The notes under the pieces were generated by a model. The model had not been told where the DNA came from. It made no database searches and saw only the letters and a list, made by a program, of their open reading frames with translations. A stretch of DNA of 64,000 nt from Candidatus Doudnabacteria bacterium. GTDB lineage: Bacteria; Patescibacteriota; Doudnabacteria; UBA920; O2-02-FULL-48-8. Below are positions 3,591-12,027 of the stretch, one piece after another; the first letter of the stretch is position 1; every line of letters starts with the position of its first letter. A program made the position numbers and the translations under genes. The stretch is from the NCBI GenBank assembly GCA_019659055.1, contig JAIFWV010000002.1, positions 26,047 to 90,046 on the forward strand, read 5' to 3'.

Positions 3591-4790
3591 TTATTTGGTG
3601 ATTTTGAGTACTACACCGGCACCGACTGTGTGTCCGCCTTCGCGGATAGCAAAGCGCTGTTTTTCTTCCAATGCAACCGGGGAAATCAGCTTAACTTTGA
3701 TAGAAACTGTATCGCCTGGCATGACCATTTCCTGGCCGGCTGGCAATTCAACTTCGCCTGTAACGTCTGTGGTTCGGATGTAGAATTGAGGCTTGTAGCC
3801 CTTGAAGAACGGAGTGTGTCGTCCGCCTTCTTCCTTGTTGAGGACATAGACTTCAGCGTCAAATTCGGTATGAGGAGTAACTGAGCCTGGCTTGCAGAGT
3901 ACTTGTCCGCGCTCGACTTCGTCCTTCTTGGTTCCTCGCAAAAGCACACCCGCATTGTCGCCTGCTCGGCCTTCGTCGAGTTGCTTGTTGAACATTTCGA
4001 TACCAGTGACTACGGTCTTGGCGGTTGGGCGCAAACCCATGATTTCGACTTCATCGGAAACTTTGACAATACCGCGCTCGATACGGCCAGTAACAACTGT
4101 GCCGCGGCCTTCTATGGAGAAGATGTCTTCGATAGCCATAAGGAATGGCTTGTCGATGTCGCGCACTGGTTCTGGGATTTGAGCATCCAAAGTTTCGAGA
4201 AGTTTAACAATGGAATCAACACCGGCCTGGTCGCCCTGAATCGCTTTGAGAGCGCTTCCGCGGACGATGGCAGTAGTTTTGCCGTCGAAACCGTATTTGG
4301 TGAGCAGGTCGCGGACTTCTTCTTCGACGAGGTCGAGAAGTTCCTGGTCTTCCACCATATCTACCTTGTTGAGGAAGACGACGATTGCTGGCACGCCAAC
4401 TTGCTTAGCCAAGAGGATGTGTTCGCGGGTCTGAGGCATTGGGCCGTCGACTGCGTTCACAACCAAAATTGCACCGTCCATCTGGGCGGCACCGGTGATC
4501 ATGTTTTTGACATAATCAGCGTGGCCCGGACAGTCGACGTGTGCGTAGTGTCTGTTTGGGGTTTCGTATTCGACGTGTGAGGTCGAGATGGTCAAGATCT
4601 TAGTTGGATCTCGGCGACCTTGTGATTCTGACGCCTTGGCGACTTCATCGTAAGGGACGAACTTTTTGGTCCAGCCCTTATCGAAGGAGACTTTGGTCAA
4701 AGCGGCAGTGAGAGTGGTTTTGCCGTGGTCGACGTGGCCGATTGTACCCACGTTGACGTGCGGCTTGGAACGTTCAAATTTGTCTGCCAT
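3591..4790 (-). CDS. tuf: Elongation factor Tu
   Basis: [28 protein letters not shown]; start MADKFERS. Confidence 0.99.
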
Positions 4791-4930
4791 TTGTATAGCC
4801 TTTCGCAATTTTTAAGTGGTATCCAGTCAGTCCCGAGCCTTAACCGAAAGCCCTATCGACCAGGCTTTTAGCCAAGTTCAGGATGACGCCAATCTTAAAA
4901 AACGCTTAAAATTAATTTTAATGCCATAAG

Positions 4931-4959
4931 ATTATAAAGGATTTGTGAGGCTTTGTAAA
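4931..4959 (-). promoter_or_regulatory. Sigma70-type promoter for tuf
   Basis: Minus strand TTTACA-17bp-TATAAT. Confidence 0.65.
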
Positions 4960-5000
4960 GGGTCAGAAGCCTTGTGGATAAGTGGCCAAAAACCAGCCAT

Positions 5001-5033
5001 TTCAACGGCTCACACCCCGTGTGAGCCGTTGAA
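5001..5033. repeat. Perfect 15-bp hairpin with ACCCCGT core (REP-like)
   Basis: ttcaacggctcacac ccc gtgtgagccgttgaa. Confidence 0.75.
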
Positions 5034-5050
5034 CCAAACTGCACCTATCA

Positions 5051-5079
5051 TTGACTTAGCAAAGAAATTCTGCTAAAAT
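5051..5079 (+). promoter_or_regulatory. Sigma70-type promoter
   Basis: TTGACT-17bp-TAAAAT with TGn extended -10. Confidence 0.7.
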
Positions 5080-5085
5080 GTCTTC

Positions 5086-5285
5086 GATTCCTGATCCGCT
5101 CTCACGGACCGAGGAAGGGGGCTTTCTAACTACCGGGTGAAGCTACGAGACAGGGGGTATCGTAGCCGGATCTGGTTTTGGCACCAATGGTTGGTGTAGT
5201 TGGAAGTCTATAACCCCCTTCATTCTTTTCATGAGAATAAGGGTGTGAATCAGCCGTCTACTTCGATTAGTGACGGTCTTTTTTA
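5086..5285 (+). ncRNA. Candidate structured ncRNA (rod-like, possibly 6S RNA-like)
   Basis: Lies between a consensus promoter and an intrinsic terminator; nested pairings GATTC/GAATC, TCTCACGGA/TTCATGAGA, GAAGGGGG/CCCCCTTC, TTTCTAACTAC/GTAGTTGGAAG, GCTACGA/TCGTAGC. Confidence 0.55.
5252..5284 (+). terminator. Rho-independent terminator
   Basis: gccgtc..gacggt stem followed by T run. Confidence 0.65.
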
Positions 5286-5328
5286 TGCCAATTTTGGTCC
5301 TCCCGACACTCGGACTACAGGTGCTTAA

Positions 5329-5912
5329 ATGCAATTTTTTTGCTATAAATACCTTACGGCAAAAACAAAACATTTGGTCTTTGGATTCGTGGGAGACTCC
5401 GGGTCTGGCAAATCCACTCTCATGATCGAACTTCTCAATTTCTTCCCGCATCTTGAGATAATCAAATCCACTTCCACCAGAGCGCGGCGCGACGACACTG
5501 ACGATTTGTTCTACAAGCTGGTCGGTATGGATTATATGGACAATCCCGAAAACCAGAAGAATTTCCTCAATCACGAAATCTATGCGGGCAATCATTACGT
5601 CTACGAGCGCTCTATCCTCGACCAGGTTCTGCGCTCACATTGCGGCATGTTTGCCATCATCGAATCCGCTGTGCCAAAAATCCAGAAAGCAGGATACGAT
5701 GTACGACTCATCAAAGTCGTCCCAATTGTGACTGGGATTTGGATCGGACTCGAGAGCGCCAGAGCGAAGACCAGCTTCGCGCCACGCAAGGCGGATTGGT
5801 TTTTGATCTCGTTATCGAAAACTCATTTCGGCCCGGCGGATTGGAACAATCAGTCGAGACTGCCGCAAAATTCATTCAGGACCAAATCCACGGGCACCAC
5901 CCCGGGAATTGA
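5329..5912 (+). pseudogene. Guanylate-kinase-like P-loop protein with apparent frameshift near 5725
   Basis: GDSGSGKST, STSTRARR, EIYAGNHY in frame 5329; kinase-like C-terminus (FDLVIEN..LEQSVETA) lies in the -1 frame ending 5912. Confidence 0.65.
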
Positions 5913-5960
5913 CAGAACCCCCCAGAACAGGTATAAATAGGAATCATTAACGGAGGATTC

Positions 5961-6227
5961 ATGAGTATCTTGGATCGACTCTTTGATTTTTTCCATCGTA
6001 CCGAGGACACCCGGGCCACTCCTGTCTTGGAATACGTGGCTCCTCCCCGCGAAGTCACCAAGTACCATCTGCACGACCACGAGTTCGAGGGTCTGGTCGA
6101 TCACTACTTGGCAGACGAGTACTACATCGACGTGGAGCGGGCGAAGCTCCACCTCAAAGACTGCAAGGAATGCACCGACGTTTTCTGCGGTTTCTGGAAT
6201 CGCATGAGACGGCAGAAGGTCGCCTAA
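5961..6227 (+). CDS. Small zinc-finger protein, zf-HC2/ZAS-like (HxxxCxxC)
   Basis: GGAGG RBS; H..x25..HLKDCKEC. Confidence 0.7.
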   Translation: MSILDRLFDFFHRTEDTRATPVLEYVAPPREVTKYHLHDHEFEGLVDHYLADEYYIDVERAKLHLKDCKECTDVFCGFWNRMRRQKVA

Positions 6228-6502
6228 TGTCTCGCTACAGAGGACTAGGACGAGCTCGAACCCGGGCCAACCGGGGCGCGCGCGAGAGCGCAGACATACG
6301 GTTACTAGAGGAAGAATACCTGAGACTCCATCCCGAGATCCGGGGGTTCGAGGACAGAATCTGCTTAATAGCCCCGAACTGCCCTGATTTTGATCGCAGA
6401 CTCCCGTTCAGAATTCCGTACTGCGATCCCCATGTGCGTGAGTGCGAAAAATGCCAGGAAAAAATGGCAGCATCCGGATTCCCATATCCAAAGGAGCGTT
6501 AA
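6227..6502 (+). CDS. Small HxxxCxxC zinc-finger protein
   Basis: TAATG coupling to upstream gene; HVRECEKC with upstream Cys residues. Confidence 0.65.
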   Translation: MSRYRGLGRARTRANRGARESADIRLLEEEYLRLHPEIRGFEDRICLIAPNCPDFDRRLPFRIPYCDPHVRECEKCQEKMAASGFPYPKER

Positions 6503-6741
6503 TGCCAGTCACAAAACTTGCTTCGGCGGTAAACGCGATCACCATCCCAGCCGATGACCTGGTTCAGACGGTCAGTGAGCACGAGAGACTGGGCGAGCGC
6601 ATAATCGCTACAGTCCCAGGAGGACTTCAACTCAAAAGGACCGGAAGCGGGCGCAATAGCGTGATCGAAGTCATCCCGACTTCTTTCACCCTCATTCTCG
6701 GGCAAGAGAGACACCGCGACTACCGAAACGGTGAATCCTAA
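6502..6741 (+). CDS. Hypothetical protein
   Basis: AAGGAG RBS, TAATG coupling, followed by terminator-like hairpin at ~6749-6786. Confidence 0.6.
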   Translation: MPVTKLASAVNAITIPADDLVQTVSEHERLGERIIATVPGGLQLKRTGSGRNSVIEVIPTSFTLILGQERHRDYRNGES

Positions 6742-6854
6742 TCGCTATCGCGGCGTGGACGTACATACGTCCCGCCGCTTTTTTTATTAATTGCTTGCGC
6801 TCGCTAGCATTATTTTTATTTGTTAAAATATTTTCAAACCCTACGGAGGCCCTA

Positions 6855-7076
6855 ATGGATTTTCAGGAGAAATCCGTCAGCTTTCATCAGTTCACTGCAG
6901 ACGTGGACAAGCTGAGAATTTTGATGATGTGCTATCGGACTTGCGAACAACCCAAAAACACCAACCCTGACACTGACGAGGTCGTAAACGCTTACAATCA
7001 TATGTTTGGGCATGGCGGACGATGCCAAGAATGCTTCCCCTATGCCGTCAAGCTACTCAGTCTCCTGGAAAATTAA
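6855..7076 (+). CDS. Small HxxxCxxC zinc-finger protein
   Basis: GGAGG RBS; C..x26..HGGRCQEC. Confidence 0.65.
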   Translation: MDFQEKSVSFHQFTADVDKLRILMMCYRTCEQPKNTNPDTDEVVNAYNHMFGHGGRCQECFPYAVKLLSLLEN

Positions 7077-7130
7077 AAACGGCGCGCCTCCTTTTTTGAA
7101 GGCCGCCGTTTTCGTTTTCCAATTATTTAT

Positions 7131-7237
7131 TTAGCGAGGCATTTGTAAAAGCAACCCGCGGAGGACGACGGTCCGAGCGCGTAGGCCGAAATTTTAGCAA
7201 AAATTTACGGCCGGTGCTTTTACAAATATGCCGAGCG
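7131..7237 (-). repeat. ~107-nt structured repeat element, copy 1 (immediately after fusA stop)
   Basis: Homologous to reverse complement of 19749-19857 with compensatory stem changes. Confidence 0.8.
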
Positions 7238-7239
7238 CC

Positions 7240-9372
7240 TTATTGTCCGACTTGTCCCACGCGGACTTTGCCAGATTCGCCGATAATTTTCTCGGCCACA
7301 TTTCTTGGCACTTCCTCGTATTTGAGAAACTCCATAGTGTAGGAAGCCTGTCCCTGGGACATGGATCGGATTTGGGTGGCGTAGCCAAACATTTCCGCCA
7401 GCGGGACTTCTGCGTCAATTATTTTGAGGTTGCCGCGATCGGTCATTTCAAGGATTTTGCCGCGCTTGGCGTTGAGGTCGCCGATGACATCGCCCATGGC
7501 TGATTCCGGGGTCGTGACCTCGACTTTCATAATCGGTTCGAGAATGATTGGGTTGGCTTTTTTCACGGCGGACTGGAAAGCCATGGATCCGGCAATTTTG
7601 AAAGCGATTTCAGAAGAGTCAACCTCGTGGTAACTGCCATCGTAGAGCGTGGTTTTGACGTTGAGCACTGGGAATCCGGCAATAACGCCGCGATCCTCTG
7701 CTTCCGCAATACCTTTTTCTATCGGTTTGATATATTCCTTGGGTACGGTGCCGCCAACGATTTCATTTATAAATTCATTGCCTTTCTCTGGATCATCCTG
7801 CGGTTCGATTCGTATCCAGACGTGACCATACTGACCCTTACCGCCGGTCTGGCGGATGTATTTGCCTTCGGCATCAGCTTTACCGCGAATAGTTTCTTTG
7901 TAAGCAACTTGGGGTTTACCAACATTGGCCTCGACTTTGAATTCGCGCTTCATGCGGTCAACCAAAATTTCCAAGTGCAGTTCGCCCATACCCGCAATCA
8001 AAGTTTGCTGGACTTCTTCGTCAGTGCTGACTCGGAAAGTCGGATCCTCTTCTGCGAGTTTTTGCAAAGCCAAACCCATCTTTTCTTGATCGGCTTTGGT
8101 CTTTGGTTCGATAGCAACCGAAATAACCGGTTCTGGGAATTTGATCTTCTCAAGCATTACAGGGAAATCGACATCACAAAGCGTATCGCCAGTGAAGGTA
8201 TCTTTCGGCCCGACCAGGGCCGCGATATCGCCGGAATGAACTTCCTTAACCTCTTCGCGGGAATCGGCATGCAATCGGACCAAGCGGCCAACACGTTCTT
8301 TGTTTCCGGAACGGGCGTTTAGAATATATGAACCGGCTTGAAGGACTCCTGTGTAAACTCGGAAGAACGCCAATTTGCCGACAAAGGGGTCAGTTGCGAT
8401 TTTGAATGCCAAGGCTACAAACTTGTCGCTATCGTTTGGAGTCAGTAAAATTTCTTCTTGAGTCTTGGTATTGATAGCCTTAATCGGGGGCTTATCTAAC
8501 GGTGAGGGCAGGTAGTTCACTACCGCATCCAAGAGCGAAGTCACGATAAGTCCGCGTCCATCTCCGCCGAGGACTGGGAAAAACTTTCCCGACAAGGTCG
8601 AGGTTCGGATAGCTTTTATCAACTCCTGGTCGCTGATTTCCTCGCCGGCCAAATATTTTTCCATGAGAGCATCATCTGATTCGACAACTTTTTCTATGAG
8701 CTTCAACCGGTACTCGCGCGCTTTCTCAAGCATGTCGGCTGGGACTTCGCCTTCGGTAAAGGTCTTGTCCTTGTGCTCCTTGTATGTATAGGATTTCATC
8801 TTCACCAAATCGACAATGCCGTTGATGTCTTTTTCAAACCCAATCGGTAGTTGGATCGGGAAGGCGTTGGGCGACAAGCGCTTGTGAATCGCATCCAAAG
8901 ATTTATAAAAATCGCCGCCAGTCTGGTTGATCTTGTTTATAAAGCACATGCGGGGTACTGCGTATTTGTCGGCTTGGCGCCAGACGGTCTCGGACTGAGG
9001 TTCTACACCCATCTTACCGTCGAAGACCACGACTGCGCCGTCGAGCACGCGTAAAGATCGCTCGACTTCGACTGTGAAGTCCACGTGTCCGGGGGTGTCG
9101 ATGATGTTGATGCGGTGAGTGTCGGGAGATTTACCGCCAGATTGCAGTGTCCGCGACCAAAAGCTGGTGGTGGCCGCCGCGGTAATCGTGATGCCGCGTT
9201 CGCGTTCCTGCTCCATCCAGTCCATGGCAGTGTTGCCTTCGTGGACTTCGCCAATCTTGTGGATCTTGCCGGTATAAAACAAAATCGACTCGGTAGTGGT
9301 GGTCTTACCGGCATCGATGTGGGCAATAATCCCGATGTTTCTGGTTTGTTCTAGGCTGTATTCTCTAGGCAT
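7240..9372 (-). CDS. fusA: Elongation factor G
   Basis: [44 protein letters not shown]. Confidence 0.99.
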
Positions 9373-10502: not shown

Positions 10503-10531
10503 TTGACAAAATCACCAAAATGTTATATATT
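10503..10531 (+). promoter_or_regulatory. Sigma70-type promoter, divergent from rpsL
   Basis: TTGACA followed ~15-17 bp later by TATATA/TATATT. Confidence 0.55.
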
Positions 10532-10571
10532 TGTGAGTCGCAACGGAATTCTTTACAGTGGGAGGCTTAAG

Positions 10572-10793
10572 ATGCCAAAGAAGCAAAAGACCCTTCAGCA
10601 CAGTTTTCAAGTAAGATTCAGCGAAAAAACCATGGCGCAAATCATGGAACTCCAGGAGCATTACGGGGCGATTACAATCGCTGAAACAATCCGCCGTGCA
10701 GTCGAAGAACGTCACAAAGTAATGGAAAAGCAAACAAAAGGATTCTCAGTGTTCGGAAAGAGGGACTCCGAAACAATTGAATTCCTTCTCTAA
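10572..10793 (+). CDS. Ribbon-helix-helix (CopG-like) DNA-binding protein
   Basis: GGAGG RBS; FQVRFS beta strand + two helices (..AETIRRAVEE). Confidence 0.6.
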   Translation: MPKKQKTLQHSFQVRFSEKTMAQIMELQEHYGAITIAETIRRAVEERHKVMEKQTKGFSVFGKRDSETIEFLL

Positions 10794-10803
10794 CGGAGGG
10801 TTT

Positions 10804-11103
10804 ATGGGTGCCAAGAAAGGTTTGCTAAGTGGCAATAAATTTAATGGCAGGCATACTACAGTAATAGACGCTGCCATTCCGATGGTAATAGCGGCAAGCA
10901 AGCGGCCGGAAGTTACAAAGATCGTACTGAGCATCATCCGGCAAATTGGCCCAGGGCCGCAGAACCTAAAATTCAAACCAATACCAGCGGGACTTCAGAT
11001 GACCATCCGGAGTACCAACGCCAAGCAGGAATTTTATCTCTACACCTCAAGCCCCGACCTTACCAAGAAGGAATTGGAAAAAGCGTGGGCAAAGGAGGCC
11101 TAA
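10804..11103 (+). CDS. DUF2103-like protein
   Basis: HTTVIDAA..IRSTNAKQEFYLYT resembles DUF2103 (recalled, not searched); GGAGG RBS. Confidence 0.55.
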   Translation: MGAKKGLLSGNKFNGRHTTVIDAAIPMVIAASKRPEVTKIVLSIIRQIGPGPQNLKFKPIPAGLQMTIRSTNAKQEFYLYTSSPDLTKKELEKAWAKEA

Positions 11104-11172
11104 CGGCAGATTCGCAGCAAATTGCGAAACTGCCTTTTTTATTTGCTAAAAATCACCCAAATGGCCTAAGTC

Positions 11173-11201
11173 TTGACAAAATTGCCAAAAAGGAGTATAA
11201 T
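11173..11201 (+). promoter_or_regulatory. Perfect consensus sigma70 promoter
   Basis: TTGACA-17bp-TATAAT. Confidence 0.8.
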
Positions 11202-11277
11202 TACTAGTTACGATCAAAACGGTTGTAACGCTTTAGAGTACAGCAAAGCCCACATATTTTGGGGCAAGGAGGACAGC

Positions 11278-11913
11278 ATGTCGTACATTGCAAACGTGTT
11301 CGGTGACCTGGACGATCAGAACAAGTACACCGACGACCTGTTGGCACAACTGCTTGCGCAACTCTTCGAGAAGCCGGCGGCGTGTGTCGATCAGGACGAC
11401 CGCTGCTCTTCCAAGCCCTTGAGCGACTCCGACACGAGCATCACGCTCGATTGCGGCAAGATCGTCAAGCGCTGCAGCTACCACACGAAGGTGTTGTCGG
11501 TGCTCGAGACGGAAGTCCGCACCGTCTTCGCGGGTGTCGCTGTCAAAGCCATCCGCGAAGTCCAGAACGCGCGGGCGGCTGAGAAGGCCCGGATCGCGGC
11601 CGAGAAGAAGCTCTTCCGCGACGAGATCCGCAAGCACCTGGCGCGCAGCGTCGGTGTCACGGTGGAAATCGTAACCGAGGAGGACGTGACCGCGAAGATC
11701 GCGGCGATGACCGAGGACCAGAAGTACAAGCTCCTCGACATCGTGCTCAAGCGCGACCAGCCGGCGAAACCCGTCGTCAATGCGACGACGAAGCCCGGCC
11801 AGAAAAACCAGAAGCCCGCGAGCCCGCGGCCGACCCTGGTTCACACCAATCGACCCATGGGTGACGTCGCGCACCCCGGCGATCTCCGCCTCACTCAGGC
11901 CGCGAATCGCTAA
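11278..11913 (+). CDS. Hypothetical protein (Cys/His cluster, coiled coil), GC-rich
   Basis: AAGGAGG RBS, strong GC3 bias, terminator at ~11945-11979. Confidence 0.7.
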   Translation: MSYIANVFGDLDDQNKYTDDLLAQLLAQLFEKPAACVDQDDRCSSKPLSDSDTSITLDCGKIVKRCSYHTKVLSVLETEVRTVFAGVAVKAIREVQNARAAEKARIAAEKKLFRDEIRKHLARSVGVTVEIVTEEDVTAKIAAMTEDQKYKLLDIVLKRDQPAKPVVNATTKPGQKNQKPASPRPTLVHTNRPMGDVAHPGDLRLTQAANR

Positions 11914-12027
11914 CCGCAACCCACCGTCAGGGCAAATGACGAGGTGGCGAAGGTACCAGTTACCTTCGCCATTTTTTTATTCCAAAAAGAAAAGGGCGGG
12001 TAGTTTTAGAACTACCTCGCCCTATTT

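Follow-up and report, generated by a model that had tools for sequence, protein, structure and literature searches.

What occupies the space between fusA and tuf in the str operon of Doudnabacteria? In the 64,000-nucleotide stretch analysed here (contig JAIFWV010000002.1 of assembly GCA_019659055.1, Candidatus Doudnabacteria bacterium; hereafter the window), these two genes, for EF-G and EF-Tu, lie 2,452 bp apart on the minus strand. The intervening plus-strand block holds a candidate small RNA, a guanylate-kinase-like pseudogene and four small open reading frames (ORFs), s1 to s4. An earlier reading of the same DNA, the original prediction, took the block for an antisense regulatory island that might encode an RNA polymerase/sigma-control module. 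We find instead that the split between fusA and tuf is an ancestral rule of the whole order and that the four zinc ligands of the small proteins, those of HxxxCxxC and one further upstream, are under selection. We think it probable that the gap is a slot with rapid turnover, that the mix found in the window consists of four unrelated units, and that microproteins resembling zinc-binding anti-sigma (ZAS) domains are a recurring cargo.

The fusA-tuf gap across the order

The canonical str operon runs rpsL-rpsG-fusA-tuf. With EF-Tu and the C-terminal half of EF-G as queries against 121 genomes of the order, we find fusA and tuf apart in every one of the 86 genomes in which the two could be paired on one contig; in the other 35 they lie on different contigs or a match is lacking. 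In the 22 genomes of the window's family the gap measures 691-2,994 bp, in the 64 of other families 382-7,731 bp, and the order rpsL-rpsG-fusA-tuf-rpsJ is retained. The distance of about 2.4 kb and the opposite-strand block were read correctly in the original prediction; the split itself is what the whole order shows. In these genomes an insert between fusA and tuf is normal and does not by itself signal a new system.

What fills the gap differs from genome to genome. We fetched the spacers of 22 genomes of the window's family (one from its tuf side only) and of 18 from other families; family counts out of 23 comprise the 22 fetched spacers and the window, whose host genome (900 kb in 39 contigs) is 97% complete. 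The cargo of the family spacers is antisense and preceded by Shine-Dalgarno (SD) sequences, few BLAST matches connect the spacer ORFs, and the gene sets of the gap differ between the window's two congeners, G001 and G002. Judged from promoters and hairpins read from the sequence, the island of the window forms four units and not one transcript: the RNA; the kinase-like gene; s1, s2 and s3, joined by TAATG overlaps; and s4. The promoter assigned earlier to tuf itself holds up well: each of the 23 family spacers agrees with the consensus at no fewer than 10 of 12 positions, and the divergent promoter has at least nine of 12 in 14 of 23. Upstream of the tuf promoter lies TTATCCACA, which we take to be DnaA-box-like; at least eight of its nine positions are matched in 14 of the 23 spacers, and in 11 of the 23 it lies 12-14 nt upstream of the tuf -35. 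The 9-mer shows no genome-wide enrichment, and its position hints that DnaA might control tuf or the divergent promoter.

We propose that the fusA-tuf gap is an old, order-wide slot. In the window's family it holds short, self-contained antisense units (promoter, strong SD sequence, small ORF and hairpin terminator) with a rapid turnover of content. The strong promoter of tuf itself would let genes come and go without silencing tuf. The window's mix would then comprise a hairpin RNA specific to the lineage, a guanylate-kinase-like gene that is dead, the operon of the coupled genes s1, s2 and s3, and finally s4, and cassettes may be exchanged by recombination in the conserved flanks. Replacement-type flexible genomic islands are likewise located between conserved genes, and the slot shares with them variable cargo between highly conserved flanks and a retained gene order. 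It differs in being small (0.7-3 kb in the family), antisense and filled with microproteins, and in that other families of the order mostly have a co-oriented gene of about 110 residues instead.

This gene is an observation in its own right. In the gaps of the other families (L053-L070) a conserved gene of about 90-130 residues, co-oriented with tuf, lies directly upstream of tuf. Matches by tblastn occur in 11 of the 18 fetched other-family gaps, with a similar-looking gene seen by eye in most of the others, and in none of the 23 gaps of the window's family; its Pfam match, RelB-like, is weak and under the cut-off.

We also note that the EF-Tu of the window looks chimeric. Its residues 1-100 are 96-100% identical to those of G003, from another genus, and just 60-68% identical to those of nine other family members, both same-genus genomes included, while the C-terminal part is 81-96% identical to that of all family members compared; a short insertion is common only to the window and G003. 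The mosaic suggests partial gene replacement beside the slot, and it fits exchange by recombination in the flanks without being proof of it.

Zinc-motif microproteins in the slot

The zinc motif recurs in these spacers far beyond chance. We collected 68 plus-strand ORFs, 67 by an SD filter and s2 by hand, and HxxxCxxC is present in 12 of them, from 10 of the 23 spacers, against 0.046 in shuffled sequences (maximum 2 in 2,000). The His is present in 12 of the 14 spacer proteins with CxxC; six control motifs with His gave zero in five cases, apart from one match each for two. That three of the window's small ORFs (s1, s2 and s4) carry the motif, as first claimed, is likewise beyond chance (0.4-0.7% per protein by shuffling). 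An upstream Cys or His lies at an offset of 23-29 in all 12 motif proteins (shuffle mean 3.6, maximum 9 in 5,000), in an offset window that was picked after the data had been seen. Ligands apart, the spacer proteins are little conserved, with a mean column identity of 21%.

A profile built from the spacer proteins finds a further member, not among its inputs, in the same slot of G020. Against 1.84 billion proteins it returns 1,152 matches, and 28 of the 31 scanned (from 150 listed) pass the zf-HC2 model, a result that is partly circular since the profile includes zf-HC2 members. In G006, a protein encoded in this slot scores above the zf-HC2 cut-off itself (33.1 vs 22.2 bits).

Which of the three proteins belong to the ZAS group? 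The original prediction assigned all of them to it; we would now count one likely member (s1), one possible member (s4) and one protein of another kind (s2). In its predicted structure s1 looks like a stand-alone zinc anti-sigma domain. It reaches 18.8 bits in a leave-one-out comparison (0 of 1,400 shuffles as high), and upstream His residues at offsets 24, 26 and 28 from the motif agree with the ZAS spacing of the fourth ligand. The model (predicted local distance difference test, pLDDT, 69; predicted template modelling score, pTM, 0.48) has helices at residues 30-34, 39-50, 58-67 and 69-87, a predicted three-helix bundle plus a fourth helix. When it is compared with 48,161 chains, five anti-sigma domains stand within the top 11: PupR (Z 5.8, root-mean-square deviation 3.0, 53 residues aligned), RsiW (Z 5.1, deviation 2.1, 51 aligned), MucA (Z 4.9), RslA (Z 4.6) and RseA (Z 4.6). 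The Atlas holds its own model of s1, independent of our alignment, which lies near zf-HC2 clusters with a template modelling score of about 0.5. Metagenomes yield three short, motif-level matches to s1. Similarly, s4 is probably a stand-alone zinc anti-sigma domain, judging by its motif and by a Cys at offset 27 (26 residues between), in keeping with the fourth-ligand spacing; a protein-database search with s4 returns only itself.

In contrast, s2 is probably not a ZAS protein. Its conserved C52 lies 17 residues upstream of the His, short of the ZAS spacing, and C46, at offset 23, is not conserved. Homologues of s2 occupy this slot in G001, G002, G013 and G021 (8-25 bits, 0 of 1,400 shuffles as high), so that its family spans four other genomes of three genera, the window's own included; one further row, L041, is without support in the leave-one-out comparison (2.8 bits, 34 of 1,400 shuffles as high). 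The homologues have in common an Arg-rich start and C52, and vary the His-Cys spacing (x3, x5, x7 and HxxxHxxC). The s2 model is more confident (pLDDT 81), with a best Z of 3.5, and no clear match appears among Protein Data Bank (PDB) representatives, viral structures or the Atlas. Over the order, profile A2 of s2 recovers only its input rows and three weak matches outside the family; a protein-database search gives only input-like sequences, and one with profile A1 gives five matches. We regard s2 as a separate, fast-evolving, slot-bound zinc family. All four small ORFs of the original prediction are present, although the SD sequence of s2, whose start overlaps the s1 stop codon, is weak; s3 has no homologue in 120 relatives.

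The likeness to class I anti-sigma factors (RsrA of Streptomyces coelicolor; RsiW of Bacillus subtilis, PDB 5WUQ; RslA of Mycobacterium tuberculosis, 3HUG; zf-HC2, PF13490) rests on the HxxxCxxC motif with its upstream His or Cys, on the predicted bundle and fourth helix of s1, and on a size near that of the soluble, single-domain RsrA (105 residues). Unlike these, the slot proteins have no adjoining sigma gene and lack a sensor domain; in several relatives from this slot a hydrophobic segment at the N-terminus precedes the zinc domain (by eye), and s1, s2 and s4 lie in a fast-turnover slot with only putative sigma binding. Several points count against the anti-sigma identity. The Z values of 4.6-5.8 are within chance reach of small helical bundles, the unrelated chain She4p ranks second (Z 5.7), and Foldseek finds no match to s1 in the PDB. 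The alignment behind the s1 model includes zf-HC2 members, which makes the fold and profile comparisons partly circular, and the score of s4 is weak (7.1 bits, a level that 1 of 1,400 shuffles reaches). The published spacing, which puts the His or Cys at 23-26 residues on the N-terminal side of the motif (PMC4960319), is found in just six of the 12 motif proteins, and the broader offset window was chosen in hindsight. Finally, Pfam, NCBIfam and PHROG offer no match of note for s1, s2 or s4; a hidden Markov model search against zf-HC2, which the original prediction had put forward as a check, leaves all three under the Pfam cut-off.

Stand-alone proteins of this type also occur elsewhere. In 25 family genomes, 20 of 20 zf-HC2 matches lie inside open frames of 40-185 residues, with no sigma gene beside any of the 12 loci read. 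The window's genome has three further stand-alone ZAS-like small proteins (C27:5972-6292, C27:12189-12647 and C6:3151-3372), one with a tandemly duplicated motif. In another family, locus L169 (G051:C1:68773-71913) has three tandem small genes, each with HxxxCxxC and two of them with two motifs.

The candidate RNA, the kinase-like pseudogene and other features

The RNA of the original prediction, described there as structured and bounded by a promoter and a terminator, is partly borne out: the promoter, the fold (z -3.6 for the core, 5113-5222) and the terminator-like hairpin (z -4.8 for 5240-5295, missed by our first terminator scan) are all there. However, the fold alone is no proof of an RNA gene, because z values of -3 or below occur in 5% of 120 random 110-nt windows of the genome. 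The reverse strand folds as significantly (z -4.6). Several G-U pairs favour a plus-strand RNA. The region also contains a 20-codon GTG ORF (5137-5199) with no SD sequence at normal distance, and it comes first after the divergent promoter, a place that in relatives is taken by an SD-led ORF. No Rfam family matches it. Neither BLAST (three chance-level matches of 20-29 nt) nor a single-sequence covariance model finds a homologue in 120 relatives; the same model run on 26 spacers peaks at an unconvincing 17.3 bits. A pattern scan gave 24 matches in viral contigs, none reaching past the pattern, and none in metagenomes. We rate a lineage-specific small RNA and a decayed cassette or repeat equally, each a little short of an even chance, and no link between the RNA and the island proteins is shown.

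A 6S-like RNA is quite unlikely. 6S RNA forms a long rod that opens, in its centre, into a bubble on both strands. The candidate resembles it in its length, about 200 nt from a sigma-70-type promoter to a terminator-like hairpin, and in the pairing of the 5' and 3' parts of its core into a rod. It differs in having no model match, no homologue in 120 relatives and, in the single-sequence fold prediction, a three-way junction and a 7-nt one-sided bulge in place of a 6S-type central bubble. RF00013 matches neither this RNA nor anything in the 121 genomes of the order, a model that in our hands is above cut-off in just four of 14 control genomes, so that divergent 6S forms can be missed. The 6S link of the original prediction therefore finds no backing. 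RNase P RNA and tmRNA are excluded, both being located elsewhere in the genome; signal recognition particle RNA gave no match in the window scan, with no genome-wide search for it made. A leader-peptide attenuator for the kinase is likewise excluded, since a conserved -10 belongs to the kinase itself and the gene that precedes it in G002 is a different one. A leader peptide in the parB island is by eye unrelated to the one at this RNA.

The kinase-like gene is present and guanylate-kinase-like, as had been seen, but broken. Compared with the intact 188-residue orthologue of the same-genus G002, its ATG reads ACG at 5356 and one nucleotide is deleted at about 5721-5725, so that no intact frame of about 185 residues is present in the window. 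A 151-nt contig of run X1, which may be the source sample, carries the same allele and matches the window without a difference over the frameshift, evidence against an assembly slip. The kinase is found in three of the 120 other genomes, in this slot only in G002 and at other loci in G013 and G018. The G002 orthologue passes the Pfam PF00625 cut-off (27.1 vs 25.2 bits), and the best PHROG match of the window's kinase is a phage guanylate kinase family. With Gmk (PF00625, TIGR03263) the kinase shares a P-loop N-terminus; in contrast to Gmk it falls far short of the TIGR03263 cut-off (44 vs 160 bits), is patchy in distribution (this query finds it in four of 121 genomes) and, in the window, is broken.

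Table 1. Features in and beside the fusA-tuf gap of the window (positions within the window; a dot marks features without strand)
Feature	Position	Strand	Remarks
tuf (EF-Tu, 399 aa), left flank	3591..4790	-	gene start at 4790
tuf 5' leader with long hairpin	4791..4925	-	similar in most family members; short in G009, G014, G015, G022
tuf promoter	4931..4959	-	TTTACA-17-TATAAT; consensus match
DnaA-box-like 9-mer (presumed)	4973..4981	-	TTATCCACA; 13 nt upstream of tuf -35
REP-like palindrome	5001..5033	.	dispersed family, on at least 6 contigs
Divergent promoter	5051..5079	+	TTGACT-17-TAAAAT, extended -10; consensus match
Candidate small RNA	5086..5284	+	rod with three-way junction (5113-5222) and terminator-like hairpin (5252-5284)
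Guanylate-kinase-like pseudogene	5341..5912	+	extended -10 at 5341-5349, leaderless start at 5356
Promoter-like element of s1-s2-s3 unit	5909..5938	+	TTGACA-17-TATAAA(T); read from sequence, absent from promoter scan, last -10 base A
s1, 88 aa, stand-alone HHCC-type ZAS-like, C-terminal helix	5961..6227	+	H38 or H40 ... H64xxxC68xxC71
s2, 91 aa, Arg-rich N-terminus	6227..6502	+	C52 ... H69xxxC73xxC76
s3, 79 aa, orphan, no Cys	6502..6741	+	start overlaps s2 stop
Terminator-like hairpin and T run closing s1-s2-s3 unit	6750..6786	+	fold
Extended -10 of s4	6821..6829	+	read from sequence
s4, 73 aa, CHCC-type ZAS-like motif	6855..7076	+	C26 ... H53xxxC57xxC60
Hairpin between s4 and fusA, possibly two-way terminator	7076..7112	.	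fold
Y-shaped dispersed repeat, 108 bp	7131..7238	.	at fusA stop; 12 near-full genome copies
fusA (EF-G, 710 aa), right flank	7240..9372	-	gene end at 7240

Five of the 12 copies of the 108-bp repeat begin 6-20 nt past a tRNA gene, and the repeat is found too in G011 and G008. Outside the gap, three plus-strand genes at 10503-11919, which run opposite to the str operon, lie directly upstream of rpsL; the second of them has a weak DUF2103 match under the cut-off. A glycerophosphodiester-phosphodiesterase-like gene lies at 1592-2272, between rplC and rplD. Genome-wide, GGAGG or AGGAG precedes the first ATG of just 25 of 323 long ORFs, a count that rests on crude first-ATG calling; the same filter returns 187 small ORFs outside long genes, with eight clusters of at least three. 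Variable small-gene islands seem to be marked by strong SD use.

Possible targets and competing explanations

What might the ZAS-like microproteins bind? The genome has six sigma region-2 matches, RpoD and five of extracytoplasmic function (ECF) size. Four of the latter are followed by a probable membrane-protein gene (two DUF5667-like, one an Ig-like protein). The fifth, on contig C30 (G000:C30:5114-5677; L029:1441-2007), is an SD-led ECF sigma with no membrane-protein gene behind it. Since each of the 10 relatives examined encodes two or more ECF-sized sigmas, targets in trans exist, and action in trans has a precedent in rsiA2 of Sinorhizobium, an orphan anti-sigma gene (PMC6180224). We tentatively propose that s1 and s4 may sequester ECF sigmas in trans, though we put this at clearly below an even chance. 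They would act as a soluble or membrane-tethered sponge for one of the five ECF sigmas, with the last helix of the microprotein blocking the sigma from RNA polymerase; in CHCC types such as s4, thiol oxidation might release the sigma, as in RsrA.

The genetic setting counts against this proposal. In PMC4598750 and PMC4960319, anti-sigma genes are described as usually adjoining, or co-transcribed with, the gene of their sigma; the island has no sigma gene, and an ORF with H[LIVAMFKTG]xxCxxC was found at none of 52 sigma loci (1.5 kb on each side, 11 genomes). The unpartnered C30 sigma has close relatives in G006 and G011 alone, yet 10 of 23 spacers encode a ZAS protein; with distributions so different, no dedicated sigma/ZAS pair is visible. 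A complex prediction for s1 residues 28-88 with the C30 sigma scored 0.12, against a mark of 0.32, and speaks neither for nor against such a complex.

The reading closest to the original prediction is that the RNA, the kinase and three ZAS proteins form one conserved RNA polymerase/sigma-control module, the RNA acting like 6S. All the parts do lie within one antisense block beside tuf, three of the four small ORFs have the motif, and the absence of RF00013 matches from 121 genomes leaves room for a divergent substitute. Co-conservation, however, fails: neither the RNA nor s3 is found in any of the 120 relatives, and the kinase, broken here, lies elsewhere in two of the three genomes that have it. 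Together with the four separate promoter-terminator units and a predicted fold without the 6S-type bubble, this leaves the module largely refuted and, in our estimate, very improbable; none of the results points to the dormancy or host-attachment switch that had been suggested for it.

An explanation that we consider unlikely, yet the strongest of the competitors, is that the ZAS knuckle is a mere small, stable scaffold, its target being something other than sigma (DNA, RNA, or another or a phage protein), or that it serves as a zinc or thiol buffer. The very low conservation beyond the four ligands would fit, as would the missing sigma gene nearby and the Cys-rich character of other SD-led small genes of the genome (24 of 187 with CxxC, only four with HxxxCxxC); most ZAS members use zinc structurally, according to PMC4598750. 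Yet the s1 model keeps, with its bundle, the fourth helix, which in class I anti-sigmas makes the contact with sigma region 2 (PMC7406223), and its top fold matches are rich in anti-sigma domains. It is improbable, in turn, that the slot cargo consists of short-lived mobile-element or phage passengers, some decaying, with no role for the cell. Two dispersed repeats in the slot, a pseudogene whose best PHROG match is from phage, and the lack of any homologue found for s3, s4 and the RNA are what such passengers would leave. Against them stand the retention of all four zinc ligands despite deep divergence, the persistence of the s2 family in this one position, GC and third-position GC (GC3) contents of the island near those of fusA and tuf, and the absence of s2 relatives from viral contigs and, by inspection by eye, of integrases and transposases from the fetched spacers.

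Our preferred reading thus remains the fast-turnover slot with recurring zinc microproteins. Two bolder versions go further. In one, a quickly reshuffled repertoire of orphan anti-sigmas, concentrated beside tuf, would serve as interchangeable ECF sponges in trans and set ECF activity with no linked sigma gene, alongside s2 as a second, undescribed zinc family and a lineage-specific polymerase-binding RNA in an order without detected 6S; we hold it to be a long shot. That the microproteins are aimed at the sigma factors of a host or a phage we consider scarcely credible.

Finally, in the open-access literature we found nothing on orphan ZAS microproteins or on 6S RNA in bacteria of the candidate phyla radiation (CPR), and nothing that treats Doudnabacteria and anti-sigma factors together. 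Anti-sigma factors have been found and classified almost wholly by the adjoining sigma gene; orphan microproteins, mostly under the Pfam cut-off, are consequently invisible to such surveys. If the slot proteins do bind sigma factors in trans, the reduced genomes of the CPR would have a mix-and-match layer of transcription control. If they bind no sigma, the ZAS knuckle would have a second use.

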